From positions 2,122 through 66,121 of the forward strand of contig CAZKYP010000001.1 of the NCBI GenBank assembly GCA_964556885.1: a stretch of 64,000 nucleotides of DNA. The letters are read 5' to 3'. Below, piece by piece: positions 5,940 through 33,181 of the stretch (position 1 is the first letter of the stretch; every line of letters begins with the position of its first letter). This DNA comes from an uncultured Pirellulales bacterium. GTDB lineage: Bacteria > Planctomycetota > Phycisphaerae > Sedimentisphaerales > Anaerobacaceae. The position numbers and the translations under genes were made by a program. Under the pieces are notes generated by a model. It saw only the letters and a program-made list of their open reading frames with translations. It searched no databases and was not told where the DNA came from.

Positions 5940-8900
5940 TTAATAAATGGCTGTCTGCATTTGTTCAGCATACTTTTGTCTGCCGAGATCGCATTTTTGC
6001 AGCAATTGACGGATTTGGTCGTTATTGGGGTCCATTTTGAGGCATTCATTCAATTCCGACCAGGCCTGTTCAAAAGCTTTTTTGGCGTAAACAGGGGATG
6101 AGTTTGAATTTATGAAATTCTGGCCTATTGAAAGGTAAGTTGCGGCGACCAGACATTTGGCGTGTAATGACCTTTTCTCGGGGGCTATCTTGTCCCAGGC
6201 TACATCCGGAAACAACTCATCATAACTGAAACTCTCCGTAAATCGCTTTAGAACCTCAAAATTTGCCCGTGCCCCTTCATGTGAAGGTTTTCTTGAAACA
6301 CTATCAAGTACCATTCTTCTAAGGTACAACGGTGCTTTAAGGTGGTGGGCTTTTAATCCGTGTTTAACAAACAGCCGTATCATGTCGTAATCCATGCTGT
6401 TTCTAAAACTGTCATCGAACTTTCCGATCTTGTCAAAGACGCTCTTTCTGATACAGGTCCTGAACGGCACAACTGGAAATCCGCAGTGAAACAGGTCTCT
6501 GATAAGATATTTTCGATCCGTGTACTCCGGGCGTTCAATCACCCGGGTCGGTCTGCCAATGGTATCGATAAGATAATCGTCGCAATAAATAAGGTCGGCG
6601 TCGGGACATTTTTCAAATTCCTTTAAATGTGATGAAATGTAATCCGGAGTCATCATATCATCGGCATCAAGAGGCACGATAAAATCACCTGATGCTTTTT
6701 TCATACCGAGATTTCGGGCGGTATAAGGCCCGCCGTTTTCCTTGTAGAAGTATTTAATCCGTGGGTCTCCGAAGCTCAATACCGCATCCTTAGTGTGATC
6801 TGTGGAACCGTCATCAACTACAATCAGCTCGAAATTCATATAGTTTTGAATCAGTATGCTTTCAATCGCCTCTATGATATAATTTTCCATGTTATATACG
6901 GGCATTATAATCGAGACCAGGGGATTGTCTTTGTGTTGGTAGATTGGGAAAATACCCAAATACTCTCTGCCATATCTCCTGCCGACCTTGTACCTCTCGT
7001 ACCAACTGTGAATCCTTCTGCCATGTTCGATTCCATCCCTGTTATAATAGTACAGCCCCAAAAATTCCGGTATGTGTTTGAAATCGTATTTTTGGGAAGT
7101 ACGAAGCCAAAAATCCCAGTCTCCCGAACAAGCTAATGACTCGTCAAAAAAGCCCAGTTCATCATGAAGTGTTTTTCTCCACATCGGCTGTGAACCAACA
7201 CAACAGCCGAAGAGCAGTCTTTCTTTACTGTATTCAGACCTTTTGGCCAGTTCTATACAGTTATGGTTTTCAAAAGTGCCGTTGGGTGTATCTGTGCATA
7301 TCTGGTCGCCATAAATAAGTGCTATTTCCGGATTTTTCTCCAGTGTGCGGGCCATAATTTCGAGGGCATCCTTACGATGCCGGTCGTCCGTATTGGCATT
7401 TGTCAGGTATTTCCCGCGGGCCACCCTGACAGCACGGTTCCATGCCGTGTAGATTCCCTCACGACAGTCGGTTTTGATGTAGGATATGTTATTATATTTA
7501 TTCTGGTATTCACGAACGATTGCATCTTCGTTCTGTTCCGAGCCGCTGTTGACAATTACAATCTCCAGCTTATCTGCTATTGTCTGCTGAACCAGGTCGT
7601 CCATGCAGCCTCTCAGGAATTTCTCTGCATTATATGTCGACACTATCGCCGAAACCAGATACCGGCTTTCCGGACCGGCGGAGCTTTCAGAAATAGCTTC
7701 GCTCTTTTGCGGAGCGGCCGGTAACGACGGTGCGTTTTCCAGTTTGGCAAGCACGGCTTTCAGACTCGCTGTTTGCTCCTGTGGCATATTCAAGCGATTA
7801 TCGTTCAGTAGCGTATGATAAATCTGTTTGACTTTATCGTATTTTCCATGGTTGAGGTAACACTGGGCAAGCTTCGTGCCGGTGCTTATGTAGCAGTCGA
7901 TTTGTGCCGTCTTGTTTTTTTCGACATCAGAGCTTGTTTTTAATTTTCGTTCAATGAATTCATCTGATTGCATTACGGAGGAAAATACGGATTCAAGCAG
8001 TATCTCGGCTTCTGTGAATTTGCCGAGCTTGGCATACAGAGTACCGAGCAGATAACGTCCCTTGAGCAAGTCCGGCTCAAGGTTCACTGCTTTCAAAGCC
8101 CATTCAGCAGCTTCCTGTGGAGAATTTTCCTGTAGAAACAGGCAGTTGCTTAAGAGTTTAAGATAATCTTTTTCAAATATCCTGGCATTTTGCGGATACA
8201 AGCTGCGGATATACTGCAGATACAATTCGATATCGGGCCATTTTTTGCGTGCCATTTTGAGCATTTCTTTTTCCCGCAGGTTTTTCTCGATGCGATGCTC
8301 GAAGTCGACTTTTGGTTCATGATATACTATCACATCGGGGGCATATATTATGCAGTTAATCTTCTCATTTAGTGATTTGTATATCCTGTATGAAAGCTCC
8401 CGGTTCTCGTTCCCGAACAGGTCGGTATCATATCCGTCGACCTTGCAGAATATATCCTTTCTGAAGGCACAATGTGAACTGACTTCACATGTGGTATGTA
8501 TAACATTATCGCCCAAATCATAACTCGCGGGTGCTGTTTGTGAGTCCGTGGAACTTTTCGGCAGTACCTTTCCTCTCAGGCCGCAAATGTTGTGTTTTGC
8601 GAAGTTCGCAAGAATATTAGCGACAAAATTTTTGTCCGGCACTGCGTCGTCGTCAAGGAACGCGAAATAGTCAGCCCTTGCCTTCGATGCGCCTGTATTT
8701 TTTGCGTATGACGGGCCGAGGTTTTTGCTTAGCTCTATACAGCAAAGCCCGCATTTGAATCTCTCGGAGATGGTTTTTAATTCGGATAATTCACCATCGT
8801 TGCTTATAACAATTATCTCGAAATCTGTCTCGGTTTGGTTTTGCAGGGCGTTAAGATTTTCATTTAATTGCTGCGGCTTATTATAAGTAACAATTACGAC

Positions 8901-11900
8901 GGACAATTTCGGCTTTGTACCACCTCTCAAATCCCATTGGTTCTTGATATAATCCGTGCGGGAATCTGCTGCGGCGATTTTTGTGAGGACCTTCTTTTTC
9001 CATATCTGTATTTCAGGCCAGTTGGAAAACAGGGGATTGTTACTTATACCGTTCCAGTCAATAATCTTACAAGCCTGCAATGCATAGTTATAGCACTTGC
9101 TAATCATAATGTTTTCGTAACTGGTTAGAGCGCTGTTGGATTTGCAGACTGCGTCCGGACTTAAAAGACGTTCGCCCAATGTCTCATTGATGTAAAGAAA
9201 ATTGTATTTTTGAGTCAGTCTGAACCAGAATTCGTAGTCGCCCGAAATCATGAAGCCTTCGTCGAAATATCCGAGCACATTATGTACTTCTTTTCGCCAC
9301 ATGGGTTGTGAGCCGGGGAAGCACTGGCCGCTAAATAATCGATCTCGTGAAAATTCACCGTTTATCCTCTCACCAACTGCAACTCTTCGTCCGTCTGTTT
9401 CGCTTACTTCTACCTGGTTGGCATAAACCATGACTTTGTCCTGATTTGCATCCAGCGCCTTTGCCATGATTTCGAGGGCATCGGGACGATGCCTGTCGTC
9501 GGTATTGGCATTTGTGATGTATTTGCCGGTGGCGATTTTGATACCCCTGTTCCATGCAGCATAGATTGTTTCGCGTTTCTCAGTTTTGATGTATTTTATA
9601 TTATTGTATTTTTTTTGAAATTCTTTTACGATCAGGCCTTCATTTTGCTGAGAGCCGCTGTCAATCACTATTATTTCGACCTTCTCGGATATAGTTTGCT
9701 TTTCCAGGTCTTCAAGACAATCGTGAATGAAATTTTCTGAATTGTATGTGGATACTATGGCACTAACAAGGTATTGTTTCTCGTGAGCATGTTCTTTACC
9801 GGTCTTGGAATTTTGTATAGATGAATCGGGGATTTTTGTTAACCAGCTATTAACAGCCTGTTCGATCATCTCAACGGTTATGGTGTTTATGCAGCGGATG
9901 TCCTGGCCGTATTTGCACCGCCAGTTGCAGCCGTAACAATCCATCTGGGTATAAACCAAAGACGTCTTTGGACTATACGGCATGAATCTGCCGAAATGGC
10001 CGCCACCAATGATTACAACATGCGGACAATTGACTGTCGCCGCTATATGTACCGGTGCCGATTCGACTCCAATACATAACTTTGCCCTTTCTAATAAAGC
10101 TGCTAACTGCCTGAGGGATGTTTTACCGCAAAAGTTGCGCACGTTGGGGTGTTCGGTTGTTTTGATAATGTTTTCCGCATTCTGGCTACTCTGTTTAGAG
10201 CCACAGATTAAAATTGGATAGTTTTTCAAACATGACATCAATTCCGCCCACTTGGAATCGGGCCAATTCCGCTTCTCATACTGTGCGAAGGGGCATATTA
10301 TCATCGGCTCTTGTATGTTTAGGTCCTTCAGCAGCTTGTCGGCATAATCCCTGTGCTCAGGTTCCAGCCATAAGGTAGTTTCATACGGATGAATAACTGA
10401 TAGGCCAAGTCCCTCGACAAATTCGCTATTTCGCTCAGTCTCAAGCATTTTGCCGGCTTTTGCGGGAATGAGTTTCGTGAAATATGGATTGTTTGCATGG
10501 ACCTGTTCTGCCGGCATGTTGGTATCGTCGCCGACCGAGGCGATTTTTTCTTTGGCTCCACTGTTTATTACAATAAAGTCGGTAACCTTATCCCTCGAAT
10601 AAACAGGACAAATTGCAACATCATACTTCGCGGCCTGGATGCGACTCATAAAATCGGCGGCATAATTCTGATCGTAGACCATCGACTTGCGATGATTGAC
10701 AATGACTTCGTCGATATAGGGACATGCCTCGGCGAGTTCTATAGTGCACTCCCTCACAATAATCGCAATATGTGAGTTTGGATAGAGTTTTCGGTAATAG
10801 GGCAGGGCCCCTGAGAAAATCACGAAATCCCCGATTCCATCTGTTTTCACAATAAGAACCTTATGTTGTTGTTTGGAAATCGCCTGGACTGCTGTTTTCA
10901 AAGCTGTAACGTCAATATTTGTTTTGTCTTCATTATGGACAAAAGTGTCGGATTGATGGCCGTAGGTAGGTGTTGATGCCCTGTCACCTGACGATGAAGT
11001 GTGTGCAACAGGACGTAACATAAAACAGCCCAGGCTATAGGCGAGCATGGGTTCTCGTTGCAATGCCGACTCTTCATCTACTTCCCGCCACTGGTTGTTT
11101 TCGTCCTTTATCCAAAAACAACTGCTTTCTATCTCCCAGTTTTTGAGGAGTTTTACAAGTCTTGTTTGTCCGTAAACGCGATGCAGTGAGCCGACAACCA
11201 TGTCAAGACCTACCGGAATTGTCAGAAGCATTTTGCCGTCCGGTTTAATGATTTTACTCATCTGGTTCATTATTTCCAGGTCGTCGTCTATTCCCTCTTT
11301 GGTTACTCCGTATCTACCTACCAGTCCGGAGTGTTCGACTGACGAACAATTGATTATTAAATCATAACTTTGCGGCGTCCAATCCTGCTGCAAAAAATCG
11401 CCCTGAATGAAGTGTATATCTCCCAGACCGTCAAGAGAGACTGTAAGGGGAGTCATATCTATCGCTGTTATCCGGTATCCGAGCTGAGTTGCGAAACGTG
11501 TCAGTTCGGCGGTTTGGCCGCATCCGAAGTCAAGAAGCCTTGATCCTTTATTATGGTTATTTGTCATTTTCGTAAGCAGGCTTTTTGTGGAGCCCCACTC
11601 AACATCTCTGTCCCCTTTTAGGTCCGGTTTTAATCTGTGTATTTGCTCTGCAAATTGTGCTGAATCCGGATTTTCAGGATCTTTGTTCAGGGCGTTTTTT
11701 GCTTCGACTTCCGCTTCCAGTAATCGACCGAGCCGAGCCAGGCATACTGCTCGTCCGAAGTGAGCATCAATACTGTCTTGAGAATGGATCAGAATCTTTT
11801 CGAATTCCTTTAGTGCCTTTACAATATGACCCTGATTCAGAAGCGTCTGTGCATGTATGATTTGATTTATTGTATTTCCTGTTTCGAAGTTATCAACATT

Positions 11901-14900
11901 AACCGGCAGGTGTGTGTCTTTGTCGAGTTTTTTGTGTTTCGGGGTGAACTTAGCTATGCAGAAACCAAATTTTTCCTTTGAATGAGTTATCAGTTCAAAC
12001 CGTTTATCCTTCTGTATCTCCTGGAAACTATGATGATGTTTGACATGGTAAATATCGTCCAGGGCAATATAACATTCTCCTTGCAGGTTATCTATGAGGT
12101 GATTAAATTCGATATTACCCATGTGGCCGCCGCTGTCAAGAAGGACAAAATCCGGCTTAAAGTCGAATACTTTGAGACATTGATATAGCAAATCGTCGGG
12201 CAGACTGGGAAAATTTGTCTCGTTATAGTAAAGCTCGGCTCTGTTTTCTTCTTTGTGGTCAACGAAAATACCATCATAATCGATATCTGTTATCGTCTTT
12301 CGGGCTATTTCCTCCTTGCTCGGCAACATCGCCCGCGGAACGGACAGGCCGTTAAGTGCATTGACCTTTATGTTATTCGTCTCGAAATATTGTTTCGCAC
12401 GAGTATAATTTTTAGGATTAACTTCGATAGTAAAAAATATTGCATCAACAATACCCAGTCTTTGCAGCGATTTTGTGATTATAGTCGTGGTGCCGGTGCC
12501 AAGATAAGTTCCAGTCTCAATAATCTTTCTTGGTTTGATTTTACTGAATAATTCTTGAATTTTTTCACCGAACGAAGATTCTGCACCAACATTAACTCCA
12601 GTTTTGACATAATCAGCGGCTATCTTAACCTTTTTGGAAACTTTGTCTGTGAGTTCCGAAGGTTCTTTCTGACAGGCTTTTTGTGCTAATGATTTTCGGA
12701 AACTTTCCATTACTTCAGGATGAGAGCCCTCAAAAGGTACAGTCTGTGAATTGATATCGCCAGTCCAGATGGGATATTTTGAATCAATCTCCTGCCTGTT
12801 CGCCGGCATCCATTTCAGGAAACATTCTTTATACCATTCAAGCAGGTCGATATTCCAGTTCTTTCCCCAGCCGTATCTGCAATAAAGCTCGATTTTCTGT
12901 TTTACTTGTTTATCTAAGACATAGCTGTAATGGTAAAAAATTATTCCCATTTGTTTTGTCTGGGTTCCATCCAGCAGGTGCATTTGTTCGGTGGTTTTAT
13001 CGGAGTCGGGCCAGAGCATTGTTGGTGGCCGGTGTGACGTAAACAGGGCGCCGGGAACATACTTAAACAGCCTTCTGTAATGGCACCATTGTTTATAGAA
13101 TGCGGGTGAAACGAAGATGTATTCCAGACCTTTCCAGAAATTGTCCGGGATGAAATTAACCTGTGTAATTGACGGTTCTTTTTTAATAATTTCCTTTATT
13201 TTCTCAAGATGCTCTCTTTTGTAAACCTCGTCGGAATCTATGAGCCAGATATAGTCCCCCGTGACATATTTCAGGGCCTCATTTTGCATCTCACATTTTT
13301 CCGGCCATCTGCCCTGGATAAGCCTGATTTTATTTTGCGGGTCCGGGAAAGACTGTATAAATTCTACTGTTCCATCAGTAGAGCTGCCATCCGGATTGGC
13401 TGCGAACATGCAATTTTCAACGGCGCCTTCTATTATGATTATCTCGTGTGCAAAATCATAAACCGACTTCAGGCTGTATTCGATAAAGGGCATTCCATTC
13501 AGGACGATCATTACGAACGAAAACTTAGGCTCATGTAGCAACTTAGGCTGATCGATAGAATGCGATATTGGCGAAATAATTTCGTCTCGAAGGTTTGTCT
13601 TACTATTTCTTGGATCAAAGGAAATAAGCGATTCTGCAGAAGACGAGTTTTCGTTATTGACGGTCGTTATCTGGTTATTGTTCCGTTCATATTCATTGAT
13701 TGCCTGTCTGAGTCTTTCGAGCAGATTTTTAGCACCGCTGTGTTCGGGCTGGAACCTGAGTTCTGTCTCACAGGCTTGTAGAGCCGAATATAATTTACCG
13801 GCCTGTGTGTAGGCGGCGGCCATAGCAAAATTCAGGTTGGACATATCGGGACAATCCGAGTGTACTTCATTAAAATAATTCAATGCCTCCTGCAAATTGC
13901 CGTCACGCATAAATTCGATACCCATTTTGAGAAGTTCTTCCGCTATTTTATCCTGATGAGGTTGCAGGATTCCCTCGGGACAGGATTTGGCCAATCTGAT
14001 AATTGCCTTTGATTTGTGGTGATCAGGTTGTAATTTTAGCTCTTCGGAACCTGCTTTAGCCGCCTCAATCGTCCTGCCCAGCCTGAGTAGGATGTTGGCT
14101 CTTCGGTAATTGAAATTCGGCCGATTTTCTCCTGCTTCCAGCAGCAGGTCCAGATACTCAAGCGCATCTTCTATTTTCTCCTGTTGTTCAAGCTCGGCAG
14201 ACCTCTTTTGGAAATGCTCGGTTATTAAATCCAGCCTGTCACGGTTCGGGCCATTTTTATATGCGAGAGGAGCATACCGTTTTGCCATGTCCCATATCCC
14301 CATATTGCAGTAGTTAATTACGTGCCATGGATATAGACTTGCTATGGCTTTATCCTTAAGCAAACGTATAGGTTCCGGTGTATCGGTATTGTTGCAAAGA
14401 CGCTCAATTGCGGCCTTTCTCGATGTCATCAGCTCTTCCCTGATTTCCGCCTGATAGCTATACGCTGCCGGATGTACTGCATATTTCGACACAAAACATG
14501 ATATGTGTCGAATGGGAAAGACGGCGCCGAGTCTTGCCCAGATTTCGAATTCGCCGCAACCGCTGTATTGTGAAAGTTTGACTGCATCGTAACATTTTTT
14601 TCTGAAAAAACTGGCGCTAAACGGGGGCATTATTTCGGAGCAGATATATTTCTCATAATCCCATTCTTTAGCTTTAACCCAGCCGGTGATATTGCCGTCG
14701 CAGTCAGTATTATAATGGTCACCGTATATCGCTGCCAGTTCAGGATTTTCCGTCAAGTTCCTGACGGCCCAGGAAACTGCATTTGGCAGCAATTCCTCAT
14801 CGGACAAACATGAACCAAAAAATTCTCCGCGTACTCTTGAAAGACAGCGAAAAAATGCGTCTCCCGGTCCTGAGTCCGGTTCGGAGACAAGATTAATTTG

Positions 14901-16816: not shown

Positions 16817-16878
16817 CGATTATCCTTTTTAACCGGTTTTCGATAGACTTTTTCTAATGATTTTAATTTTTCTATACT

Positions 16879-16892
16879 GCAAATTTCGTGCC
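16879..16892 (-). promoter_or_regulatory. sigma-54 -24/-12 promoter candidate inside the modification island
   Basis: The minus-sense sequence is aGGCACGaaatTTGCAg, with GG-N10-GC spacing. It lies about 65 nt upstream of the kinase gene start, in a 208-nt gap. Confidence 0.6.
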
Positions 16893-17024
16893 TGTGGTCA
16901 AAAAAGCCGTTTATCAACGACCATGCCATCCGAACCGGCAAACATGTAAAATTATCAGACATCTTCAATGCTGCAATCATTGTAAATATGCCCCCATCAT
17001 TTGCTTAAAGAGCCCCAAAAAAGA

Positions 17025-17546: not shown

Positions 17547-17618
17547 TCCGCTCTTTTCATTTCGGCTCGAAAAATATGGAACTAATAACCATTTATATAT
17601 CTGGTTTCCGGCGTGTCC

Positions 17619-19076: not shown

Positions 19077-19102
19077 TATGTTAAACTCTCCTGTTTTAAC
19101 AT

Positions 19103-20050: not shown

Positions 20051-20080
20051 TTACACAATCCTTTGTTCCGAATACGAGCA

Positions 20081-23273: not shown

Positions 23274-23322
23274 TTTTTATTCTCTTTCAGTGTTTATTGT
23301 TTACTCTTGCAGTAGGAGAATT

Positions 23323-24690
23323 TCAGCATGGTATTCCTTTCATTGCCATCTCCAGCCTATTGAGCAATTGTCCGGCCGGAAGATTGTCCTTATATAATAA
23401 CAATTCCGCCTCACATGCCTTTTTTGCATAGCCCAGCTTGCCCAACTGAGCCAGGGCCGTCGCTCTGGCAAATTCCAGATTAGGAAGCCACGGTGAAATT
23501 TCCTTAGCCTTGTCCAGGCTGATTAAAGCGTTCTGGGGCTCGCCGGCTTGCAGCTTTGCAACACCGTCTTTCATCAAGTCTGTAAAATTCGGGTAGCTGC
23601 CTACAAGAAGATTCATGTAATCATTCGCCTTTTCCTTCTGGCCGGATTCCAGGAACGATGAAATAAGTAATTTGAGAGAACCAACATCGTCGAATGATTT
23701 TTCGAGTTTCAATTTGTCGAGTATTTTACCCCAGAAGTTTTCAGGCCTGCAGAGTTCGAATGCTTTGCGTCTGCCGTTTTCAGCTATTGCAATTCGTTCG
23801 GAATCGTGTGTCAGGTAATACCTTGCCTTTTCGGCCAGATCTCTTTCATCTTTGAAAGGGACGAATTCCACCATCGGTTCGAACCATCTCGGTGTTTCAG
23901 GGTTATCTGATTCCAGCAGCATTGTCCCGCATAAGGTCGACTCCATCAGGCGTCCCTTGTATGTCAGCTTATCACCGGAGCCGCAGAAATTAAGAGATAT
24001 TTTTGATCGCTTATATATTCCCGCGTATTCCTCGAGAGTGAGTCTGTCCTCCAGTTGGCCGCCGGTTTTATGCACATTGATTCCGGCCGCTCGCAGGGCA
24101 TTAATGCCTTTAATCCTGTCTTGTTTGTTTATGATGCGGCCGTTAAAACTGATATTGATGTCCCTTTCCAGTTTCGGATCAAAAAATATTGTTGTATCCG
24201 ATGAAAACGGCAGGCTCATGTATTTGTCCGGGCGGGCGATGTTCTTAAAGCTTTCTATAGGATCCGTGGTGATGCCGACGTCTACCAGCGGCATAATTTT
24301 CTCGGCAAGCCTGACTATCAGGTCCGCCCACGTATCGGGCCACATTGCAATAATAGGTATTCTCAGGTTTTTCCTGATAATATACAGAGTCTCGAATGTC
24401 GGATTCAGGTAATCGGGAGCACTGGGCAGCCAGACCAGTACGAAATAATCCGGCCGGACAGCTTTGCACATTTGAATCAATTCCGAATCAACAGGGCGTT
24501 TGAGGGTAAGGTAATGATCGTCAACCAGAAAAACATCATAGGTTGCAAAATCCCAGCCGTTAAGGGTATCCCATGTGAAGTACGCACAGTTGCTTGGTCC
24601 GCGGTTCGGTTCTCCCCTCAGCCACTTGGTGCCCCAGAACAGAAAATGAGGTTTTTCTCTCCGTTTATAATCTGTTTTTGATGCATCCAT
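23323..24690 (-). CDS. CgeB-like (Glyco_trans_1_2 / DUF3880-type) glycosyltransferase fused to C-terminal TPR
   Basis: The central block is YKRSKISLNF...RLMESTLCGTMLLESDNPETPRWFEPMVEFVPFKDERDLAEKARYYLTHDSERIAIAENGRRKA. The C-terminus holds TPR-like helices (ALISLDKAKEISPWLPNLEFARATALAQLGKLGYAKKACE). Confidence 0.65.
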   Translation of the reverse strand: MDASKTDYKRREKPHFLFWGTKWLRGEPNRGPSNCAYFTWDTLNGWDFATYDVFLVDDHYLTLKRPVDSELIQMCKAVRPDYFVLVWLPSAPDYLNPTFETLYIIRKNLRIPIIAMWPDTWADLIVRLAEKIMPLVDVGITTDPIESFKNIARPDKYMSLPFSSDTTIFFDPKLERDINISFNGRIINKQDRIKGINALRAAGINVHKTGGQLEDRLTLEEYAGIYKRSKISLNFCGSGDKLTYKGRLMESTLCGTMLLESDNPETPRWFEPMVEFVPFKDERDLAEKARYYLTHDSERIAIAENGRRKAFELCRPENFWGKILDKLKLEKSFDDVGSLKLLISSFLESGQKEKANDYMNLLVGSYPNFTDLMKDGVAKLQAGEPQNALISLDKAKEISPWLPNLEFARATALAQLGKLGYAKKACEAELLLYKDNLPAGQLLNRLEMAMKGIPC

Positions 24691-24721
24691 ATAAACGTCC
24701 TTTCAGACAAGGTCGACAGGC

Positions 24722-25654
24722 TTAAACGTTTGCATACTGGTTTCTTTTTATTACCTGATATCCTTTGATCAATTCTGTTATGCCGTCATCCAGTGAATAG
24801 ACTGGCTTGAATCCCGCCGCTTCTATCTTCTCGTTGCTTACTATATAATTCCTTTTGTCCGGGTCCAGTCCAACTTTAGCCTCGACAAAATAGAATTTTG
24901 GAACCTGCTTTTGAATCCGCTCGCACAATTGCCATTTGCTCAGGTTGGCGTCGCTCAGCCCGACATTATAAGGCTGGTCTTTCATGCGATTGAAGTTGTC
25001 CAGGCAATGCAGAAAAACCCTTGCCACATCGCGTATATGGATATAGTTCCGCATAAAATGTGCCTGATAAAGAACGATATAGCCGTCATTAACAGCGCGA
25101 TATGTAAAGTCATTGACCAGAAGGTCCAGCCGCATTCTCGGGCTTATACCGAAAACCGTAGCCAGCCTTAACGTAATTACATCACCATCGGATAACAAAT
25201 CTTTTTCTATATCCACCTTTAGTCTGCCGTAAAGCGAAACAGGCTTAAGTGGTGTATCTTCAGTACAATGAATACCTTCCTGACCAATCCCATATCCGCT
25301 GTTTGTTGTCGGAAAAACAATCATCTGGTTTCTGCTTCGCAGCTCGAGAATCATTTTTATAGCATCGTATATGATCGATTTGGCTTCGATTGGAAATTTA
25401 TCACAAAGTGGTGCACCCGTAAGGCACGCAAGAGGCAGGATAACGTCGGCTTTTTTAATATGTTTCGAAATCAGGGATTTATCTCTGACATCGCCGCGAA
25501 TTATGTCGAGATGTTTACTGTGACAGCAATCCAGCAGTGACGCCTGGTTGTACATAAAGTTGTCAATAACAGTGACATCATGGCCGCTGCTCAGTAATTC
25601 CGGGACCAGAACAGAGCCAAGGTATCCTGCACCGCCTGTAACTAAAACTTCCAT
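24722..25654 (-). CDS. NAD-dependent sugar-nucleotide epimerase/dehydratase/reductase (extended SDR)
   Basis: Has the N-terminal VLVTGGAGYLGS motif and the catalytic YxxxK in SLYGRLK. Confidence 0.85.
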   Translation of the reverse strand: MEVLVTGGAGYLGSVLVPELLSSGHDVTVIDNFMYNQASLLDCCHSKHLDIIRGDVRDKSLISKHIKKADVILPLACLTGAPLCDKFPIEAKSIIYDAIKMILELRSRNQMIVFPTTNSGYGIGQEGIHCTEDTPLKPVSLYGRLKVDIEKDLLSDGDVITLRLATVFGISPRMRLDLLVNDFTYRAVNDGYIVLYQAHFMRNYIHIRDVARVFLHCLDNFNRMKDQPYNVGLSDANLSKWQLCERIQKQVPKFYFVEAKVGLDPDKRNYIVSNEKIEAAGFKPVYSLDDGITELIKGYQVIKRNQYANV

Positions 25655-25673
25655 GTCGACCTTTTTAACGTTA

Positions 25674-26585
25674 CTAATTCCATTCCACGATTGTGTTTAC
25701 GATACTTTCTTTATCAAGTCCGAGTTTACAATGAATATCTTCCCGTATCCCGTATGTATATAAATGGTCATCCGATACGGCCAGCCGCTTCAATGGAACA
25801 GATACACCGGCATCAGTTAGAATTTCGGCAACGATACTTCCGAGTCCGCCATTGATTGTATGCTCTTCGATTGTTATTGCCTTTTTTATGTTTCTTACAG
25901 CTTGAAGAATGCTCTTCGTATCGATTGGTTTGAGCCTATACAGTTCAACAACCTGCGCTTCAATTGAATACTTGACAAGTTCCTTGGCGATCTCGAGCGC
26001 CCTGTGTACCATCATGCCGGTAGCGATGATACAAATATCCCAACCTTTCTTAAGGACGGAAAATCCTTTATCTATATTTTCGTTTTCTTTATGCAGCAGG
26101 GGGTATTTGCCCCTGTCGAGCCGGCAATAAACGGGTGTTTTGGCTCGAAGAGAGACGTCAACAAGAGCGGCTGCCATATTCGTGTCAGCCGGACTGTATA
26201 TGTGCATATTTGGAAGAGCACGCATAACGGCGATATCCTCGGTGGCGTGATGGGTCGGTCCGTCTACACCGTATGCATAGCAGGGCCCCACACCTATGAG
26301 AGTTACAGGCAGATTCATAGCGCACAAATCGATTTTCAACTGCTCGTAGCAACGCAGTGTAATAAAAGAAGCTATGCTGTACACATAAACCTTCTTGCCT
26401 GCTAAGGCCATACCGGCCGCGACTGAAATAAGATTCTGCTCTGAGATGCCGCCGTTGATAAACTGCTTCGACAGGTCCGCTCGGAATTTATCCAGACTCG
26501 GGGCGCCGTATTCATTGGACATAAAAATTATGTCAGGATCAGATTTTGCCCGAGTATATAGTTTCTGGATAAATGCGTCTCTCAT
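25674..26585 (-). CDS. Transketolase, C-terminal (pyrimidine-binding) subunit of a split enzyme
   Basis: Contains GISEQNLISVAAGMALAGKKVYVYS and GVDGPTHHATEDIAVMRALPNM. It is paired with the adjacent N-terminal subunit gene. Confidence 0.88.
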   Translation of the reverse strand: MRDAFIQKLYTRAKSDPDIIFMSNEYGAPSLDKFRADLSKQFINGGISEQNLISVAAGMALAGKKVYVYSIASFITLRCYEQLKIDLCAMNLPVTLIGVGPCYAYGVDGPTHHATEDIAVMRALPNMHIYSPADTNMAAALVDVSLRAKTPVYCRLDRGKYPLLHKENENIDKGFSVLKKGWDICIIATGMMVHRALEIAKELVKYSIEAQVVELYRLKPIDTKSILQAVRNIKKAITIEEHTINGGLGSIVAEILTDAGVSVPLKRLAVSDDHLYTYGIREDIHCKLGLDKESIVNTIVEWN

Positions 26586-26607
26586 ATTAGTTCCAAATAC
26601 TCTATAT

Positions 26608-27501
26608 CTAACCGCGTTCCAATTCTTCTATCGCCATTTTAATTTCTTCCTTACGGTTTAAGGAACGGACATGCCATGTCGGATCATTTTCCATAAAGGA
26701 AATGCCTTTACCTTTGACTGTTTCGGCGATGATAATCAACGGCGTGCAGGTATCTCTCGAACGGGCATAGCGAAAAGCCCCGTCAAGCTGGTTAAAATCA
26801 TGTCCGTTACATACGACAGTTTCCCATCCGAAGGACTTCCACTTGTCACCAAAAGGCTCAAGGCCCGTGAAATTGTCTGTGAAATCGATTGATCCGATGT
26901 GATTTCTGTCCACAATAGCGACTATATTGTCTAATTCATGTTTGCCGGCAAACATGGCGGCTTCCCAGACCGAGCCTTCGGTACATTCGGCATCACCCAT
27001 CAGTACGAACTGGAAGTGATTTTTGTTATCCATTTTCGCGGCCAGAGATATACCGGCCGCAATTCCAAGTCCATGACCGAGAGAACCGCTTGTGATTTCA
27101 ACGCCGGGTATAGCTCTGTCCGGATGTCCGCCGAGAAAACAGTCACCTCGTCGGTAGCGGGTTTCGAGCCATGATACGGGGAAAAAACCGAGGTCCGCCA
27201 AAACGGCATACAGGGCGGTTTCGCCGTGTCCTTTGCTTAACAAAAATCGGTCCCGGTCTTCCCACTCTGGGACACTCGGGTCAACATTCAAATTGTGACC
27301 ATAGTATAGAGAGACCAGAATATCGACACAGGAAAGTGACGAAACTATATGCCCTCCGGTGCTTATACACATTTGTAATACTTTTTTGCGTATTTGATTC
27401 GCTTTGTGTTCCAATTCAACCGCATTCAGATGAAGTTCTTTTAATGAAGCGATTATCGTTTCCATGTTACGTTTAGTGGTATCTTCTTTTATAATCTTCA
27501 A
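26608..27501 (-). CDS. Transketolase, N-terminal (ThDP-binding) subunit of a split enzyme
   Basis: Contains GGHIVSSLSCVDILVSLYY, LSKGHGETALYAVLADLG, GSLGHGLGIAAG and the ThDP motif GDAECTEGSVWEA. Confidence 0.88.
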   Translation of the reverse strand: MKIIKEDTTKRNMETIIASLKELHLNAVELEHKANQIRKKVLQMCISTGGHIVSSLSCVDILVSLYYGHNLNVDPSVPEWEDRDRFLLSKGHGETALYAVLADLGFFPVSWLETRYRRGDCFLGGHPDRAIPGVEITSGSLGHGLGIAAGISLAAKMDNKNHFQFVLMGDAECTEGSVWEAAMFAGKHELDNIVAIVDRNHIGSIDFTDNFTGLEPFGDKWKSFGWETVVCNGHDFNQLDGAFRYARSRDTCTPLIIIAETVKGKGISFMENDPTWHVRSLNRKEEIKMAIEELERG

Positions 27502-27510
27502 TATTAATCT

Positions 27511-28755
27511 TCAAACCTTTCTCATGACCAGTCTGAGACTGCTTGTTAAAAGCTCTTCTTCACTATAGTCTTGCAGCTCACTTAATATATCTGGTGTCAG
27601 TAGTTCCAAATGTTTGAAGTTCATTCCAAATCTGATATGTACCGGACTTACAATTTGAAAAAGATCAGCTACTATTGACTTGTATTCTCTGGTGCTGATC
27701 TGGTTATATCCATCTGAATAAATATAATCGATATGAGATCCAATCGGGGCTGATTGAATGATCTCTTTGCAGCGATCTTTGTAGTATGATTTCATTCCTT
27801 CGGCGTTCTTTTTTCTAAGATGAATCCAAGGATCGTTCGGAAAAATTGTCTCTTTATGGTGACCAAAAGCCGAGTTCCACAACGGAGCCGCAAAACAATA
27901 AATAATTCCTCTTTTTGCAGTAACTCTTACCATTTCTTCAAGCGCGTCCTTCGGATTTAAGACATGTTCTAATGTCGCCATGGAACAACAAATATCAAAG
28001 GAATTGTCCTTAAATGGTATTTTCTCAGCCGAACCTCTGACATATCTTATCCGGGGATGTGGATAACCTTGTCCCACATCTTCTATTATATCTAATCCTG
28101 TTACTTCTTTGGCTCCCATACAGGCGAGCAAATCACATTCCAATCCCCTATTGCACCCTACATCCAGAACGGTTTGATTACGGATGTCAACATATTTCCT
28201 CATATCATTCAGTAAATTTTGATGATAGCTTTTTTGTTCTTTTTCCTGTTTTGTGCTTTCTTGTTTATGGGCTAATCTATCAAAACTACCTTTGTCCAGG
28301 AAAGCCGCTCTGTTTACGAGGATAAAGTTCTTCTCGACAGGTATGACTATTTTCACCTTTAGATTTTCAAGCCGTTCTATTACATTATCGAGCAGATTTT
28401 CATCTAATTGGCACTGGCTGAAAATCGTATATTCACCTTTTGCTTCCTGGGCCGCCAGGAGACATAACTGCACGAAATCAAGTCCTGCCGGAGGCTTAAT
28501 TATTTTAATGTCGTCGATAATGGTTTTTATGTGGGATTCGTCAATCGCAACTGAGCTGTTATTGATAATTATGAGTTCGTACAGGCCGGGTAGGCTGGTT
28601 GCCAATAGTGAGTGCACGTAATTATATGCGTTTGGACAGTCAGTACCTATAAAAAGAACAATAGAGCATCGTTTCTTGACCCGGTCTGTTCCGTAACCGG
28701 TTGCTGTCTTGACGCTATTAATGACTTTGGTGTTGTTTGGTTGAACACAGAGCAC
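27511..28755 (-). CDS. Two-domain protein: degenerate GT2-like N-domain plus class I SAM methyltransferase
   Basis: The C-terminal half has VLDVGCNRGLECDLLA...VTGLDI...FDICCSMATLEHV (Methyltransf_11-like). The N-terminal half, CSIVLFIGTDCPN...LIIINNSS, resembles a GT-A fold but has no clear DxD motif. Confidence 0.6.
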   Translation of the reverse strand: MLCVQPNNTKVINSVKTATGYGTDRVKKRCSIVLFIGTDCPNAYNYVHSLLATSLPGLYELIIINNSSVAIDESHIKTIIDDIKIIKPPAGLDFVQLCLLAAQEAKGEYTIFSQCQLDENLLDNVIERLENLKVKIVIPVEKNFILVNRAAFLDKGSFDRLAHKQESTKQEKEQKSYHQNLLNDMRKYVDIRNQTVLDVGCNRGLECDLLACMGAKEVTGLDIIEDVGQGYPHPRIRYVRGSAEKIPFKDNSFDICCSMATLEHVLNPKDALEEMVRVTAKRGIIYCFAAPLWNSAFGHHKETIFPNDPWIHLRKKNAEGMKSYYKDRCKEIIQSAPIGSHIDYIYSDGYNQISTREYKSIVADLFQIVSPVHIRFGMNFKHLELLTPDILSELQDYSEEELLTSSLRLVMRKV

Positions 28756-28992: not shown

Positions 28993-29322
28993 TTACTGTA
29001 AATCAATATTATTTCGATAAGTTCCGACTATTTTTCTGCCTATGCGGACTTGACAAAGCTTATTGGCGGCGTCGGCCTTCTGGCATTCCAGAGACAAATA
29101 TAAACTGTCATATAATTCCCGGAGCCGTTTCCAATGATCTTCATAACCGGAATGTTTATGTATCCCGGCCTGTGTTATTTTCTGTACGAGTGAATCCGTC
29201 TGTGTGCCGAGCAGTTTGATTTGTTCGCCGGAAGAATTACCATGTTGAACCAGCTCGATCTGTTTTTCCAACATACTCTGTAATTCTCTCAGCATTTGTT
29301 CTTCGGTGGTTGTATTCATCAA
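28993..29322 (-). CDS. Small helical protein of unknown function (possible FlgN/FliT-style chaperone)
   Basis: 109 aa with predicted helical heptad-like composition. Its ATGA overlaps the stop of the upstream TPR gene. I recognise no diagnostic motif. Confidence 0.4.
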   Translation of the reverse strand: MMNTTTEEQMLRELQSMLEKQIELVQHGNSSGEQIKLLGTQTDSLVQKITQAGIHKHSGYEDHWKRLRELYDSLYLSLECQKADAANKLCQVRIGRKIVGTYRNNIDLQ

Positions 29323-29969
29323 ATTTCTATTTTTGCCAGTTTTTCCTGTGCCAGACTGTGTTCGACTTCTTCCAGCAGATTGGATGCATCCTTATGACCT
29401 GAATCCAGCGTCAGAAGGTCATAAAGTACCTGTTTTGACTGCTCCAGCTTTCCGTCTTTCAGATATAACGCTGCAAGCGGGAACATTACAGACGTATCAC
29501 CCGGATGCATATCCAGATACACCTCCAGATAATGAGTAACCTGTTCGAAGGAACCCATCTGGCTGGAAGTTTGAAACAGTCCAAGGAGAGCCGCGATATT
29601 ATCGCTGTCAAGTTCCAGGCATTTCAGATACATCTCGAACGACCGTCTGTAATCGCTTTTTTTCTGTGCCACCAGGCCCAGACCGGCGTAAGCCTTGGCA
29701 CAGTTTTTATCGAGTCTGCATGCAACCTTGAAAGCGGCTTCCGCGTCTTCGAGCATATTTTCCTGTAGAGCAATAACTCCAAGCCCGACATAAGGACCAG
29801 CTTCATCAGTGGCAAGAACCGCCGCTTTTTCGTAATATTTTTTTGCCTGTGTGTAATTACCCAAAGAAGTGTGACAATCCCCCAATTCCTGTAATACTTC
29901 ATAATGTTGCGTAGAGTCATGCTGTTGGTCGATATCGTTTTGGGTTATGTCCATAATTTTTTCCCACAA
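29319..29969 (-). CDS. Stand-alone TPR repeat protein
   Basis: Shows repeated 34-residue A/Y/G patterns: LGNYTQAKKYYEKA, LEDAEAAFKVACRLDKNCAKAYAGLG, YRRSFEMYLKCLELDSDN. Confidence 0.7.
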   Translation of the reverse strand: MWEKIMDITQNDIDQQHDSTQHYEVLQELGDCHTSLGNYTQAKKYYEKAAVLATDEAGPYVGLGVIALQENMLEDAEAAFKVACRLDKNCAKAYAGLGLVAQKKSDYRRSFEMYLKCLELDSDNIAALLGLFQTSSQMGSFEQVTHYLEVYLDMHPGDTSVMFPLAALYLKDGKLEQSKQVLYDLLTLDSGHKDASNLLEEVEHSLAQEKLAKIEI

Positions 29970-30010
29970 GTACTCCGGAGATTTTCACTTGTTCCGGTAA
30001 GTAATCCGTT

Positions 30011-31588
30011 TCAGCGACATCCGGAAAAATATTCCATTTCATTGTTAAGTATCTGTTCAGCCGATTCGAGCAGTTCAATTGCCGAATCGAAATTATTCTC
30101 GTTTCGTTTAATCTTCGCCTCTAATAAAAGCGTATCCACAGAGGGTCTTTGATTGTTAATTTCACTGTTGAGTATCGCTGCTCTTCTTAAATCTCCGGCT
30201 TTATAGAATGCCTTTGCGGCCATAGTCATCATCCACAACCGGTTCCGATGGTTGTCAGCAATGTGCTCAAACAATTCGGCCGCTTCCAGCCATTCTCCAT
30301 CCCGGCCGGCCGATTTAGCCTGTTGGAGTAAATTGTCGAACTGGAAAGGATACTCCTTAAAGTCCGGTTTTCTTACGGCTATTCCGGAAGCCTTTAAAGA
30401 TTCATATACTGGTAAATCAGGCCTGTTTTTTCTGGCAATAAGCAGGTCTTCTTTACGAATCACCGCCGCCCAAAGTTCATCTGTCGATTCTTCAAGCTCA
30501 AGTACCTGCCGGTCAACTGGATTGTTGATCATTGCGTATAGCGGGATTTCGATCCATAGATCCTTTATTGGATATCTGTCAGATACTATTCCGATATAAT
30601 CCCCATCACATTTTTCAAGAACCGCATCAATACGTCGGGCTGAAGATGCTGTTTCATCTACTGGTATGAAAATCAGGTTGGGCATATCGGTATTTAATTT
30701 GGCAAACTCGGACTTTGGCATGGGTATATATATTTTATATGGGTAGAACGTACACCGCCAGATAGTAAGTATGGCCGTAGCAGTCTGTATGTCTACGTGG
30801 TCGGAGAGAAATATGAGTGACATATCCTTAATCTTAGGCCAGGGTTTGGCCGGTCTGGTTGTTCGTATTGTCAGTACGTTCCAGAAATATTTGTTTGTAT
30901 CTTTACGCTGCTGAACCGATATTCTGTCACAGTCACCCATCGGGTGGTAATATTCACCGGTGATTTCATGGACATGATGAAAATCAGAAAAGAAGACCAG
31001 CCGACGAGCCATATCCCAGTCAATTAGAACATTTAGCTGCTCGTTGTAAGGCCCGGTTTTATCAAGCAAATCCAAACGGTGCATCAGGCATACGTGCAAA
31101 ACGTGATTGAATAATAACATAAGGAAACGGTCGAAGTCCCGGCTGACCTCGACAACTTTACTTAAGACCTGCCGTGTGCCGTCCGACATAACTTTACAGT
31201 AAACTTTGTAGAAGTCGCTGTAGGCGACCTGGCAATCGGTATCTCCTTCGAGGGCATCGACCAGTGTCCGGATATGATTGGGGTAATATATATCATCGTC
31301 GTCAAGGTATGCAACATATTTACCTTTGGCCCTTTCAAGGGCTTCATTTAGAGAATGGGCCTTGCCGCGGTTTTCCTTTCTGTTGATAAATATCAATCGT
31401 GGATCTTGAAATGAACGAATTATATCACTAACATCATCACCACCGTCGTTGACCACGAGTATCTGCATATTCTCGTAGCTCTGACCAAGAACGCTGGCCA
31501 GCGCCTTATGCAAATATTGGGGGCGGTTGAAAGTCGAAATAAGCACGCTAACCACCGGCCCGGCCATTTTCTCATAATTTTCCGACAT
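30011..31588 (-). CDS. GT2 glycosyltransferase with C-terminal TPR domain
   Basis: The N-terminus reads PVVSVLISTFNRPQYLHKALASVLGQSYENMQILVVNDGGDD...YLDDDD. The C-terminus has TPR-like helices (WLEAAELFEHIADNH..., AKAFYKAGDLRRAA). Confidence 0.8.
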   Translation of the reverse strand: MSENYEKMAGPVVSVLISTFNRPQYLHKALASVLGQSYENMQILVVNDGGDDVSDIIRSFQDPRLIFINRKENRGKAHSLNEALERAKGKYVAYLDDDDIYYPNHIRTLVDALEGDTDCQVAYSDFYKVYCKVMSDGTRQVLSKVVEVSRDFDRFLMLLFNHVLHVCLMHRLDLLDKTGPYNEQLNVLIDWDMARRLVFFSDFHHVHEITGEYYHPMGDCDRISVQQRKDTNKYFWNVLTIRTTRPAKPWPKIKDMSLIFLSDHVDIQTATAILTIWRCTFYPYKIYIPMPKSEFAKLNTDMPNLIFIPVDETASSARRIDAVLEKCDGDYIGIVSDRYPIKDLWIEIPLYAMINNPVDRQVLELEESTDELWAAVIRKEDLLIARKNRPDLPVYESLKASGIAVRKPDFKEYPFQFDNLLQQAKSAGRDGEWLEAAELFEHIADNHRNRLWMMTMAAKAFYKAGDLRRAAILNSEINNQRPSVDTLLLEAKIKRNENNFDSAIELLESAEQILNNEMEYFSGCR

Positions 31589-31624
31589 TCCAGGAGTATC
31601 TTACTTTCTCTTCGTAACAATGAT

Positions 31625-33181
31625 TTATGTGATCCAATTATTCTCGAATATCCGAGAACCAGTAACAGCGGGATGTTTATATTGCTTGATATTGGAATTT
31701 TGCGAACTGTTACTTTGCGCGGCCGCAGTTTGTTGCGAATCTATTGAGGTCTCAATCTGAGTAAAAATATCGTTGATCTTGTTCAACTGTTTATTCAACG
31801 AATACTTTTCTTCTACAAAACTACGATACCTGTGCGGCTCGTACGGCCCGGAGCAAATTTGTTCGCAAAATTCTTCAGCGATATTGAATAAAAATTCGGA
31901 GGGGAACGTTTCGCTCGCTCCCGGAAAGTTATGTATTACGGGTTTCAAACCGCAAGCCATCGCTTCCAAAAGTCCCATGCCCTGACTCTCGATAAGGCTG
32001 GTCGAAACGATGTAATGTTTGTCCCTGAGCCATGCATTGACGTTTTCCTGCCAGCCGTCGAAGAAAATCACGTTGTTGAGATTAAGAGCATCAACCATGT
32101 GTCTTACATATTGCTCGATGGTTTCATCCTGGAACATACCTCCAAAGAACAGGCGGTAGCCGGGGTCTATATAGTGTAGTTTCTGCATGCACTGCAAAAC
32201 AAAAGCAGGATTCTTCACCGCTCTAATGTTAGACAGGAAGGCTATGTTTTTCCCTCGCGGCCGGTCGACGAAATTAAATTGGTCGAAATTTATACCGTTG
32301 GGAATAGTGACGATTGATGTTTGACTTTCAAGTGATGGGACCTTTCGGAAGAGGGCGTCCTTTACAAACTTGTTACCAATTATTACAAGGTAATCGATGT
32401 CGGACCAGTTTATCTGTTGCGGCCACGGCCCATAAGCTTCATAACGATGCAATCTTATAATGTTCTTACAGACCTTTGGCATCTTGGAACCGATAACCGC
32501 AAGGTCGGTGCACCATTCAAACCATGAAATATCGCTCCATTTCATCAAGTCGTACAGTTCTTCCTCTGTTTTACCGTTAAAAATACGTATTTCAAATCGC
32601 TGGTCTGTAAATTTTGTGATTTCATCAAGAAATTTCATACCATCAGCGCCGCAAATAAATGCCAGCTTCGGTCTTTTGTAACGAATTACATCGATCATCG
32701 GCCGCAATATTTCCTGATCGGGACAAATTTGGAGGGAATGAAGCAACATTTCGATTGCCCCGGCTTTGTTATCCTGATCAAGTAATACATTGGCGGTTCT
32801 GTTCAGAACATCTGCATTTAAGATATTCATTCGCTCCATATCATTAAAAAGCTGTACCGCTTCATTTGCTCTGCCGGTCGCCAGATATGCCTCCACCAGG
32901 TTCCAAACTATTTCACCGGAATCGTTTTTCAGGGAACGGGCCTTGAGGAAATGATCTATGGCTTCTTTTGAGCGGCCCAGGCAATGGAGAATCGCTCCTG
33001 TATCATTCAGGGCCTGTGCATCATTTTTATCGGTAAGAAGATATTCCTGCATGTACACAAGGGCCTGCTCGTATTGTCCGTTTTCGGCTAATTTCAAACC
33101 TTTTTCGTAATTATTGAGGTTTCCATGGTTTCCATCATGTATTTGCCCATCGTGGCTGTTCAAATTTATGTCCTTTATCAT
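31625..33181 (-). CDS. N-terminal TPR domain fused to GT-B (GT4-like) glycosyltransferase
   Basis: The N-terminus has TPR repeats (GQYEQALVYMQEYL, GRSKEAIDHFLKARSL, GRANEAVQLFNDM). The C-terminus has the GT-B signature STSLIESQGMGLLEAMACGLKPVIHNFPG (E-x7-E region). Confidence 0.78.
   Translation of the reverse strand: MIKDINLNSHDGQIHDGNHGNLNNYEKGLKLAENGQYEQALVYMQEYLLTDKNDAQALNDTGAILHCLGRSKEAIDHFLKARSLKNDSGEIVWNLVEAYLATGRANEAVQLFNDMERMNILNADVLNRTANVLLDQDNKAGAIEMLLHSLQICPDQEILRPMIDVIRYKRPKLAFICGADGMKFLDEITKFTDQRFEIRIFNGKTEEELYDLMKWSDISWFEWCTDLAVIGSKMPKVCKNIIRLHRYEAYGPWPQQINWSDIDYLVIIGNKFVKDALFRKVPSLESQTSIVTIPNGINFDQFNFVDRPRGKNIAFLSNIRAVKNPAFVLQCMQKLHYIDPGYRLFFGGMFQDETIEQYVRHMVDALNLNNVIFFDGWQENVNAWLRDKHYIVSTSLIESQGMGLLEAMACGLKPVIHNFPGASETFPSEFLFNIAEEFCEQICSGPYEPHRYRSFVEEKYSLNKQLNKINDIFTQIETSIDSQQTAAAQSNSSQNSNIKQYKHPAVTGSRIFENNWIT

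Follow-up and report, generated by a model that had tools for sequence, protein, structure and literature searches.

A conserved TPR-transferase core and a replaceable glycosyltransferase-rich island between flgL and fliD in a planctomycete flagellar gene cluster

Gene content of the flgL-fliD interval

We analysed the interval between flgL and fliD (5940-33181) in a 64-kb stretch of DNA from an uncultured Pirellulales bacterium (contig CAZKYP010000001.1), referred to below as the window, which open reading frame (ORF) and family scans characterized as a flagellar supercluster almost throughout. Both borders named in the first-pass annotation were confirmed by family models, with flgL (TIGR02550) upstream and fliD (FliD_N and FliD_C) downstream. 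They enclose 18 ORFs (at least 100 aa each) on the minus strand, which overlap or are separated by short gaps. A nineteenth gene had been counted earlier; it corresponds to a 55-aa ORF (16813-16980) that is doubtful as a gene because it has no family match and overlaps a sigma-54-like promoter. The interval had also been taken for a single island, and comparison with relatives revealed instead a conserved four-gene core (28993-33181) followed by a replaceable island of 14 genes (5940-28992). The features, all on the minus strand, are as follows; TPR denotes tetratricopeptide repeat, GT glycosyltransferase (family), SAM S-adenosylmethionine and SDR short-chain dehydrogenase/reductase.

33392-34576, minus: flgL, hook-filament junction protein, upstream border (TIGR02550, 169 bits against a cut-off of 127)
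31625-33181, minus: TPR-GT4, core gene 1 (Pfam: TPR at residues 25-157, Glycos_transf_1 of the GT-B fold at residues 310-426)
30011-31588, minus: GT2-TPR, core gene 2 (N-terminal GT2 of the GT-A fold, 105 bits; C-terminal TPR_19, 19 bits, below cut-off)
29319-29969, minus: 216-aa all-TPR protein, core gene 3 (many TPR matches in Pfam)
28993-29322, minus: 109-aa FliT-like helical protein, core gene 4 and end of the conserved block (FliT matches of orthologues)
27511-28755, minus: SAM methyltransferase with a marginal GT2, first gene of the variable island (Methyltransf_11, 71 bits; GT2, 21.3 against a cut-off of 23.3)
25674-27501, minus: split transketolase (N-terminal subunit 26608-27501, C-terminal subunit 25674-26585; Pfam and NCBIfam)
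24722-25654, minus: SDR like that of PDB 6VO6, GDP-heptose C4-dehydrogenase type (396 bits, 56% identity over 308 aa)
23323-24690, minus: Glyco_trans_1_2 glycosyltransferase with a helical C-terminal tail (69 bits against a cut-off of 25)
22473-23273, minus: Methyltransf_24/TylF-like methyltransferase, marginal (26.0 against a cut-off of 26.3)
21189-22409, minus: MiaB/RimO-like radical SAM enzyme (UPF0004 and Radical_SAM; TIGR00089, 157 bits against a cut-off of 251)
20081-21199, minus: radical SAM/SPASM enzyme (Pfam)
19103-20050, minus: 315-aa protein, candidate methyltransferase (weak PDB methyltransferase hints, E 0.005-0.14)
17619-19076, minus: B12-binding radical SAM enzyme, class B methylase type (B12-binding 71 bits, Radical_SAM 66 bits)
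17025-17546, minus: RmlC-fold 3,5-epimerase (best PDB matches 8db5, 8dco and 7m14, E about 1e-37)
15821-16816, minus: GHMP kinase, heptokinase (HddA) type (best PDB matches 4usk, 3k85 and 4n3o; NCBIfam HddA, 161 against an equivalog cut-off of 600)
15067-15831, minus: sugar-1-phosphate nucleotidyltransferase, HddC type (NTP_transferase 116 bits; HddC, 151 against a cut-off of 300)
5940-15101, minus: 3053-aa fusion protein (segment-wise Pfam scan: six GT2 and one GT9)
3806-5845, minus: fliD, filament cap, downstream border (FliD_N 88 bits, FliD_C 134 bits in Pfam)

The interval holds ten glycosyltransferase modules above Pfam cut-offs, in line with the earlier estimate of at least ten; seven of them belong to the 3053-aa protein, and the marginal GT2 of 27511-28755 is a possible eleventh. 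Pfam and NCBIfam likewise recovered the proposed kinase, nucleotidyltransferase, epimerase and SDR set, the split transketolase and the TPR domains, together with three radical SAM enzymes of the B12-binding (methylase class), SPASM and MiaB-like types; no TRAM domain was detected by Pfam in the MiaB/RimO-like enzyme. The claim of six methyltransferase modules was borne out in part, with two above cut-off (residues 1175-1325 of the giant protein, and 27511-28755) and one marginal (22473-23273), while residues 830-1075 of the giant protein and the 315-aa protein 19103-20050, which gave no Pfam or NCBIfam match, were not demonstrable as such. With two solid methyltransferase domains only, the heavy methylation that had been ascribed to the glycan is overstated. 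The modules of the 3053-aa protein are arranged as follows.

Residues 19-133: GT2
Residues about 305-470: TPR
Residues 530-650: GT2
Residues 830-1075: no match
Residues 1083-1150: TPR
Residues 1175-1325: methyltransferase, above cut-off
Residues 1592-1725: GT9
Residues 1780-1910: GT2
Residues 2067-2187: GT2
Residues 2313-2371: TPR
Residues 2484-2612: GT2
Residues 2730-2890: GT2

GT2 modules 3 and 5 (residues 1775-2045 and 2470-2720) are 49% identical to each other and the remaining ones at most 30%, indicating an internal duplication. The GT9 module matched lipopolysaccharide (LPS)-type GT9 enzymes better than TibC, to which the match was weak (E 0.008).

As had been noted at first reading, the interval contains neither flagellin nor fliS, and FlgL is the sole flagellin-type gene product. 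With E. coli FliC and B. subtilis Hag as queries, phmmer searches of six-frame ORFs of at least 50 aa retrieved FlgL only in the window, and again FlgL only among the six-frame ORFs of 83 relatives' loci, and blastp at 1e-8 gave no flagellin match. FliS, Maf and NeuB gave no Pfam match in any window ORF scanned; for Maf (MAF_flag10/DUF115) this covers every island protein. Pfam and NCBIfam scans of the island found no NeuB/PseI-type synthase or other nonulosonic acid gene, in agreement with the first-pass annotation. None of the 18 interval proteins has a membrane segment (19-residue window, Kyte-Doolittle >1.6), and the controls FliP, FliQ, FliR, FlhB and the FlgH/FlgI signal peptides were positive under the same test. 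The Pfam and NCBIfam scans also found no initiating phosphoglycosyltransferase, flippase, polymerase or ATP-binding cassette (ABC) exporter (Wzm/Wzt, Wzx/Wzy) in the window. The island has a G+C content of 43.3% against about 46% in its flanks, a dip too small to serve as an argument for recent foreign origin.

A conserved core beside a replaceable slot

TPR-GT4 has more than 1000 homologues, the best 120 of which are 64-89% identical, and the named organisms among these 120 are Phycisphaerae, Sedimentisphaerales or Planctomycetota. A scan of species-representative genomes with TPR-GT4 gave 80 loci, all at no more than 70% identity (57-70%), which places the species of the window outside this set; the window proteins were mapped onto these 80 loci and three others. 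Taxonomic labelling in this clade looks inconsistent: the species representatives often bear the title "uncultured Pirellulales bacterium", and sister records that share the conserved locus are assigned to Sedimentisphaerales or Phycisphaerae.

The core is retained with its order across the Sedimentisphaerales relatives (about 80 species), reading flgK, flgL, TPR-GT4, GT2-TPR, the TPR protein and the FliT-like gene. In 67 of 72 loci the gene immediately upstream of TPR-GT4 is flgL, and in 71 the distance between the two is no more than 2.2 kb. Among the 60 relatives with sufficient downstream sequence, GT2-TPR is present in 58, the 216-aa TPR protein, a candidate adaptor or chaperone, in 59 (56-78% identity), and the 109-aa FliT-like gene in 55.

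Downstream of the FliT-like gene the loci diverge, and the insert before fliD can be as short as about 100 bp or exceed 10 kb. Seven loci reach fliD after about 100-460 bp, another seven carry an insert of 4-7 kb that is usually one giant multi-transferase ORF, and in 36 loci fliD was not reached within 6 kb. In 27 loci the insert includes an ORF of 1000 aa or more; the longest, at least 2478 aa, is truncated by the end of its locus. Wherever fliD is visible, flhB, fliR, fliQ, fliP and fliO come next in convergent orientation, as in the window, and then mot genes. The boundary was located with a metagenomic contig (L003, 87% DNA identity), which aligns with the window between 37087 and 29000 and shows no similarity beyond; behind the breakpoint it carries different genes, the first of which encodes a double methyltransferase absent from the window. 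Since synteny with this contig ends there, we place the boundary of the variable island at the stop codon of the 109-aa gene (28993). Close relatives thus carry different genes at the same site, as is characteristic of flagellar glycosylation islands. The inserts of relatives are nearly free of membrane proteins: among 210 ORFs of at least 150 aa from 54 relatives (342 kb), two had three or more membrane-like segments.

The FliT-like protein

The first-pass annotation had listed the gene at 28993-29322 among the modification genes; our data point to a divergent FliT-like chaperone instead. The window copy of the 109-aa protein gave no family match in Pfam. Among 36 orthologues, however, FliT was matched in 15 and FlgN weakly in 19, and one orthologue reached the FliT gathering score over the full profile (29.7 against 29.5). 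FliT is the chaperone of FliD, and in relatives without an insert the 109-aa gene stands directly upstream of fliD. A profile search against PDB returned chance helical matches only, and a single-sequence AlphaFold model (predicted local distance difference test score 77) had no significant Foldseek match; its template modelling score to FliT structures, 0.55-0.57, was higher than to others though not significant. Together these sequence comparisons support, with moderate confidence, a divergent FliT-like chaperone. An origin as a FlgN paralogue was ruled out by hhalign against the local FlgN family (probability 0.2).

The 36 sequences share a well conserved basic C-terminal tail with the majority consensus R-K-G-K-K-T-I-x-x-Y-R-x-N-I, in which the G, the Y and the second R are found in at least 90% of the sequences. 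This tail might serve for docking, a TPR domain being one conceivable partner.

Heptose genes and a recurrent cassette

The SDR encoded at 24722-25654 is 56% identical over its full length (308 aa) to the protein of PDB 6VO6/6VO8, and we take 6VO6 to be C. jejuni Cj1427, the GDP-heptose C4-dehydrogenase. The function of Cj1427 and the GDP-heptose pathway of C. jejuni have been described (PMC10680097). The top PDB matches of the RmlC-fold protein (17025-17546) are GDP-4-keto-heptose 3,5-epimerases and those of the GHMP kinase (15821-16816) are heptokinases; HddA and HddC are the best NCBIfam models for the kinase and the nucleotidyltransferase, both below their equivalog cut-offs. A heptose-type sugar, as the first-pass annotation had proposed, is therefore well supported by the SDR, the epimerase, the kinase, the HddC-type nucleotidyltransferase and the GT9 module. 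The transketolase, the radical SAM enzymes and the methyltransferases might, among other possibilities, supply sedoheptulose 7-phosphate, transfer two-carbon units or carry out C-methylation or methylthiolation.

The MiaB-like enzyme has homologues in glycan clusters across many phyla, with one and the same gene set recurring around them. This recurrent cassette comprises a split transketolase, a GHMP kinase, an epimerase, at least one SDR, a Methyltransf_24/TylF-type methyltransferase and the MiaB-like, B12-binding and SPASM radical SAM enzymes, often with a nucleotidyltransferase. Rich in radical SAM enzymes, it apparently represents an uncharacterised sugar pathway. It was located in the following loci of unrelated organisms, two of them from metagenome-assembled genomes (MAGs).

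L085, 6857-14797: cassette
L088, 2317-16867: cassette
L084 (Mobilitalea MAG), 291-6295: cassette
L086 (Desulfovibrio MAG), 1601-21029: cassette

The cassette proteins of L085 and L088 are 51-72% identical to those of the window, with 71-72% for the partners of the radical SAM/SPASM enzyme (20081-21199) in both loci and 58-70% for those of the Methyltransf_24/TylF-like protein (22473-23273) in L085, L088 and L086. Because the homologous set stands beside ABC polysaccharide exporters elsewhere, the cassette is not specific to flagella, and the earlier view of a dedicated glycan system does not hold for it; in this genome the cassette has been plugged into a flagellar slot. In the neighbourhood comparison suggested in the first-pass annotation, TPR-GT4 keeps its linkage to flgL in 71 of 72 loci, and the cassette is exporter-linked in L085 and L088. 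L085 additionally encodes, beside the exporter, a 986-aa fusion of asparagine synthase-type domains with GT9 (751-3711).

Promoters of the interval

The window was searched with the sigma-54 pattern, which yielded six matches against 1.16 expected, a number reached in none of 100 shuffles. Five of the six precede operons at short distance and are correctly oriented, and the sixth (7867-7880), inside the giant gene, is probably a chance match. The promoter elements are as follows.

33255-33268, minus: sigma-54-type promoter GGCACGGAATTTGC of the core glycosyltransferase operon, kept at this position, as GGCAC-N5-TTGC, in 64 of 74 relatives
33323-33336, minus: upstream element TTTGATATTTATAC, single copy in the window, found in the flgL/TPR-GT4 intergenic regions of 59 of 74 relatives
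16879-16892, minus: second sigma-54-type site GGCACGAAATTTGC, within the variable part, 63 nt upstream of the heptokinase-type kinase gene
14-27, plus: sigma-54-type site before the fliO operon
45466-45479, minus: sigma-54-type site before the flgD operon
47598-47611, plus: sigma-54-type site before a TPR gene
5905-5931, minus: sigma-28-like fliD promoter TAAA-N15-ATCGATAA, weak on window statistics alone

The upstream element TTTGATATTTATAC sits 66-69 nt upstream of the -24 GG of the sigma-54 promoter in 49 of 55 relatives, and candidates for its binder are an enhancer-binding activator or an IHF-like protein. A CGATAA element was found upstream of fliD in nine of 11 relatives examined. The variable island is placed between the sigma-54 operon and the sigma-28-type fliD promoter and therefore lies inside the flagellar regulon. 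The promoter kept in 64 of 74 relatives, the second site within the island and the flgL linkage thus bear out the embedding in a flagellar regulon that the first-pass annotation had deduced. A generic scan for sigma-70 promoters and terminators was uninformative.

Flagellar context of the window

fliO, fliP, fliQ, fliR and flhB occupy the left end of the window (121-3791, plus). Beyond flgL, the minus strand continues with flgK, flgN, a short FlgJ-like gene, flgI, flgH, flgA, flgG and flgF, then a 413-aa gene, flgE and flgD. The right side carries, on the plus strand, two sigma-54 activators, two TPR proteins, fliL, fliM, fliN, flhA and fliA.

The 413-aa ORF between flgE and flgF (42014-43255, minus) has no Pfam or NCBIfam match, and a relative (L001) carries at the same position a 442-aa gene without a Pfam match; it may be a conserved flagellar-operon gene of unassigned family. 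The two TPR proteins (835 and 288 aa; 47705-51069, plus) are encoded between both sigma-54 activator genes, behind a sigma-54-type site. An 89-aa ORF 3' of fliA (60047-60316, plus) looks FlgM-like by eye and has no Pfam match. A GH130 mannoside phosphorylase gene (61567-62622, minus) marks the right-hand limit of the flagellar cluster.

Discussion

The observed genes, their synteny and promoters and the lack of membrane proteins lead us to propose a flagellar protein O-glycosylation locus with a fixed and a replaceable part, an interpretation that we hold to be reasonably probable. Soluble enzymes without an exporter fit cytoplasmic glycosylation of a flagellar export substrate, which is probably a flagellin encoded elsewhere in the genome. 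In the mechanism we propose, the fixed part would be transcribed from the sigma-54 promoter within the flagellar gene set, its TPR domains would recruit the unfolded export substrate in the cytoplasm, and the conserved core transferases would attach the first sugars. The replaceable part would provide strain-specific chemistry: the cassette would make a GDP-activated heptose by way of the heptokinase-type kinase, the nucleotidyltransferase, the 6VO6-like C4-dehydrogenase and the 3,5-epimerase, the heptose would be tailored further by the split transketolase, the three radical SAM enzymes and the methyltransferases, and the 3053-aa protein, with seven transferase modules, at least one methyltransferase and three TPR blocks, would elongate the chain directly on the protein. 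The glycoprotein would exit via the flagellar export apparatus, and therefore no flippase or exporter would be needed.

The island type itself is known. In P. aeruginosa, the a-type flagellin glycosylation island is located after flgL. The flagellum glycosylation islands of Alteromonas and P. aeruginosa have been described as replacement islands, with a table giving FlgL as the border gene of the P. aeruginosa island (PMC4033161), so that the flgL-bordered slot studied here is a classic replacement site and, contrary to the first-pass annotation, does not go beyond known islands in size and position. Like those islands, it carries a strain-variable block of transferases and sugar-synthesis genes at a fixed flgL-bordered flagellar site without an exporter. 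Unlike them, it is followed by fliD and not by a flagellin gene, is preceded by the four-gene TPR/transferase/chaperone block, and contains heptose genes, three radical SAM enzymes and a seven-transferase fusion. Read as a flagellar glycosylation island of Planctomycetota, the locus is marked by the order-wide TPR-transferase core, the giant multi-transferase fusions and the radical-SAM-rich heptose cassette.

The core transferases recall characterised flagellin-modifying enzymes in their layout. FlmG of Caulobacter and Brevundimonas is a flagellin O-glycosyltransferase with GT-B and TPR domains; the latter binds flagellin, and glycosylation depends on it (PMC7591256). TPR-GT4 likewise joins an N-terminal TPR region to a C-terminal GT-B domain, is soluble, is encoded with flagellar genes and would be made before the late substrates; FlmG, however, transfers pseudaminic or legionaminic acid, and the window island has no nonulosonic acid genes. 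In GmaR, the flagellin O-linked N-acetylglucosamine (O-GlcNAc) transferase and anti-repressor of Listeria monocytogenes, an N-terminal transferase domain precedes a TPR region (PMC9638930), the same order as in GT2-TPR (30011-31588). An identity of GT2-TPR with GmaR was rejected, as a PDB search that included GmaR residues 141-637 gave GT2 matches only and no sign of an anti-repressor domain was seen. In Maf-1, too, the TPR domain binds flagellin and is required for glycosylation, and the tripartite Maf-2/GlfM system of Shewanella and Kurthia encodes a small helical FliS/FliT-like adaptor beside the flagellin transferase. By analogy, the 109-aa FliT-like protein could be a counterpart of GlfM, an adaptor for the neighbouring transferases, as an alternative to its chaperone assignment.

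For the sugar, the closest parallel is the capsular GDP-heptose pathway of C. jejuni (HddA, HddC, Cj1427 and Cj1430-type enzymes), whose kinase, nucleotidyltransferase, dehydrogenase and 3,5-epimerase all have counterparts in the island. Unlike that pathway, the island genes stand in a flagellar cytoplasmic context and not in a capsule locus, lack GmhA and a C4-reductase, and are accompanied by a split transketolase and three radical SAM enzymes. TibC and AAH are cytoplasmic GT9-related autotransporter heptosyltransferases that put heptose on serines of a secreted protein; the giant protein resembles them in having a GT9 module, with a weak match to TibC.

Several points weigh against reading the locus in this way. 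The phmmer searches found no flagellin gene in the window, nor within 10 kb in any relative, and the likeness of TPR-GT4 to FlmG is one of domain architecture. GmhA and GmhB, which start the heptose pathway, were not recognised in the window scans, and no C4-reductase was recognisable there; by analogy with C. jejuni, where GmhB is encoded away from the heptose locus (PMC10680097), all three may be encoded outside the window. The glycosylated target, the order of steps and the glycan chemistry are parts of the scheme that we infer. In L085 and L088, moreover, the cassette adjoins ABC2_membrane and ABC_tran/Wzt_C genes (Wzm/Wzt-type exporters), and the island sugar could feed a polysaccharide here too.

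That last point leads to the possibility that the genes of the variable part provide sugar for a surface polysaccharide or LPS and stand by chance at a flagellar recombination hot spot, with the transporters for their product encoded elsewhere. The exporters beside a cassette of 51-72% protein identity speak for it, as does the GT9 family, best known for LPS heptosyltransferases. Against this, the window has no initiating phosphoglycosyltransferase, flippase, polymerase or ABC exporter, the island proteins have no membrane segment, the inserts of 54 relatives are nearly free of membrane proteins, a sigma-54-like site lies within the island, and the giant transferase contains three TPR blocks, typical of protein-directed enzymes; we regard a polysaccharide locus as quite improbable. 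The flagellar location would be altogether incidental if the island made a glycosylated small molecule or a modified nucleotide sugar with a non-structural role. Three radical SAM enzymes, one of them MiaB-like, and a split transketolase are indeed more reminiscent of natural-product pathways than of described flagellin islands, and a full-text literature search on flagellin glycosylation and radical SAM enzymes gave no relevant paper. Ten transferase modules and the TPR domains argue instead for a polymeric glycan on a macromolecule, the family scans found no core scaffold synthase, transporter or resistance gene, and the slot is conserved beside conserved TPR transferases, which makes a small-molecule product very improbable.

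A different target under the same TPR-guided cytoplasmic mechanism would change less. The glycosylated protein might be FliD, FlgK, FlgL, the hook or cytoplasmic regulators, the last in the manner of O-GlcNAc transferase, and such a target would suit genes that lie between flgL and fliD instead of beside a flagellin gene, the co-encoded FliT-like chaperone, and the precedent of GmaR, a flagellin transferase that doubles as a regulator. Nevertheless, the 57-70% identity of TPR-GT4 across the order suggests a very conserved partner, the N-terminal matches of FliD are merely 45-73% identical, and the characterised TPR-bearing flagellar transferases considered here act on flagellin, so that we think a target other than flagellin rather unlikely.

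Within the flagellar O-glycosylation reading, we tentatively offer a more specific scenario, which we advance as a possibility more than an expectation. TPR-GT4 and GT2-TPR would constitute a new, order-wide family of flagellin glycosyltransferases that prime the filament protein without recourse to nonulosonic acids; cytoplasmic extension of the glycan would then fall to megasynthase-like proteins of as many as seven transferase modules. The sugar would be an undescribed heptose or higher-carbon sugar tailored by the MiaB-like, B12-dependent and SPASM enzymes (C-methyl or methylthio), and the same cassette would also serve exported polysaccharides in several other phyla.

If the proposed reading is true, it would extend flagellar glycosylation to Planctomycetota, for which our literature search found no earlier description. 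A fixed recognition module combined with a swappable chemistry module would be a clean natural system for target selection in cytoplasmic O-glycosylation, and the locus would suit the study of long-glycan assembly without a lipid carrier. The recurrent radical-SAM-rich cassette in many phyla may give new sugar chemistry, and a slot this variable is consistent with phages or grazers driving the diversification of an exposed structure.

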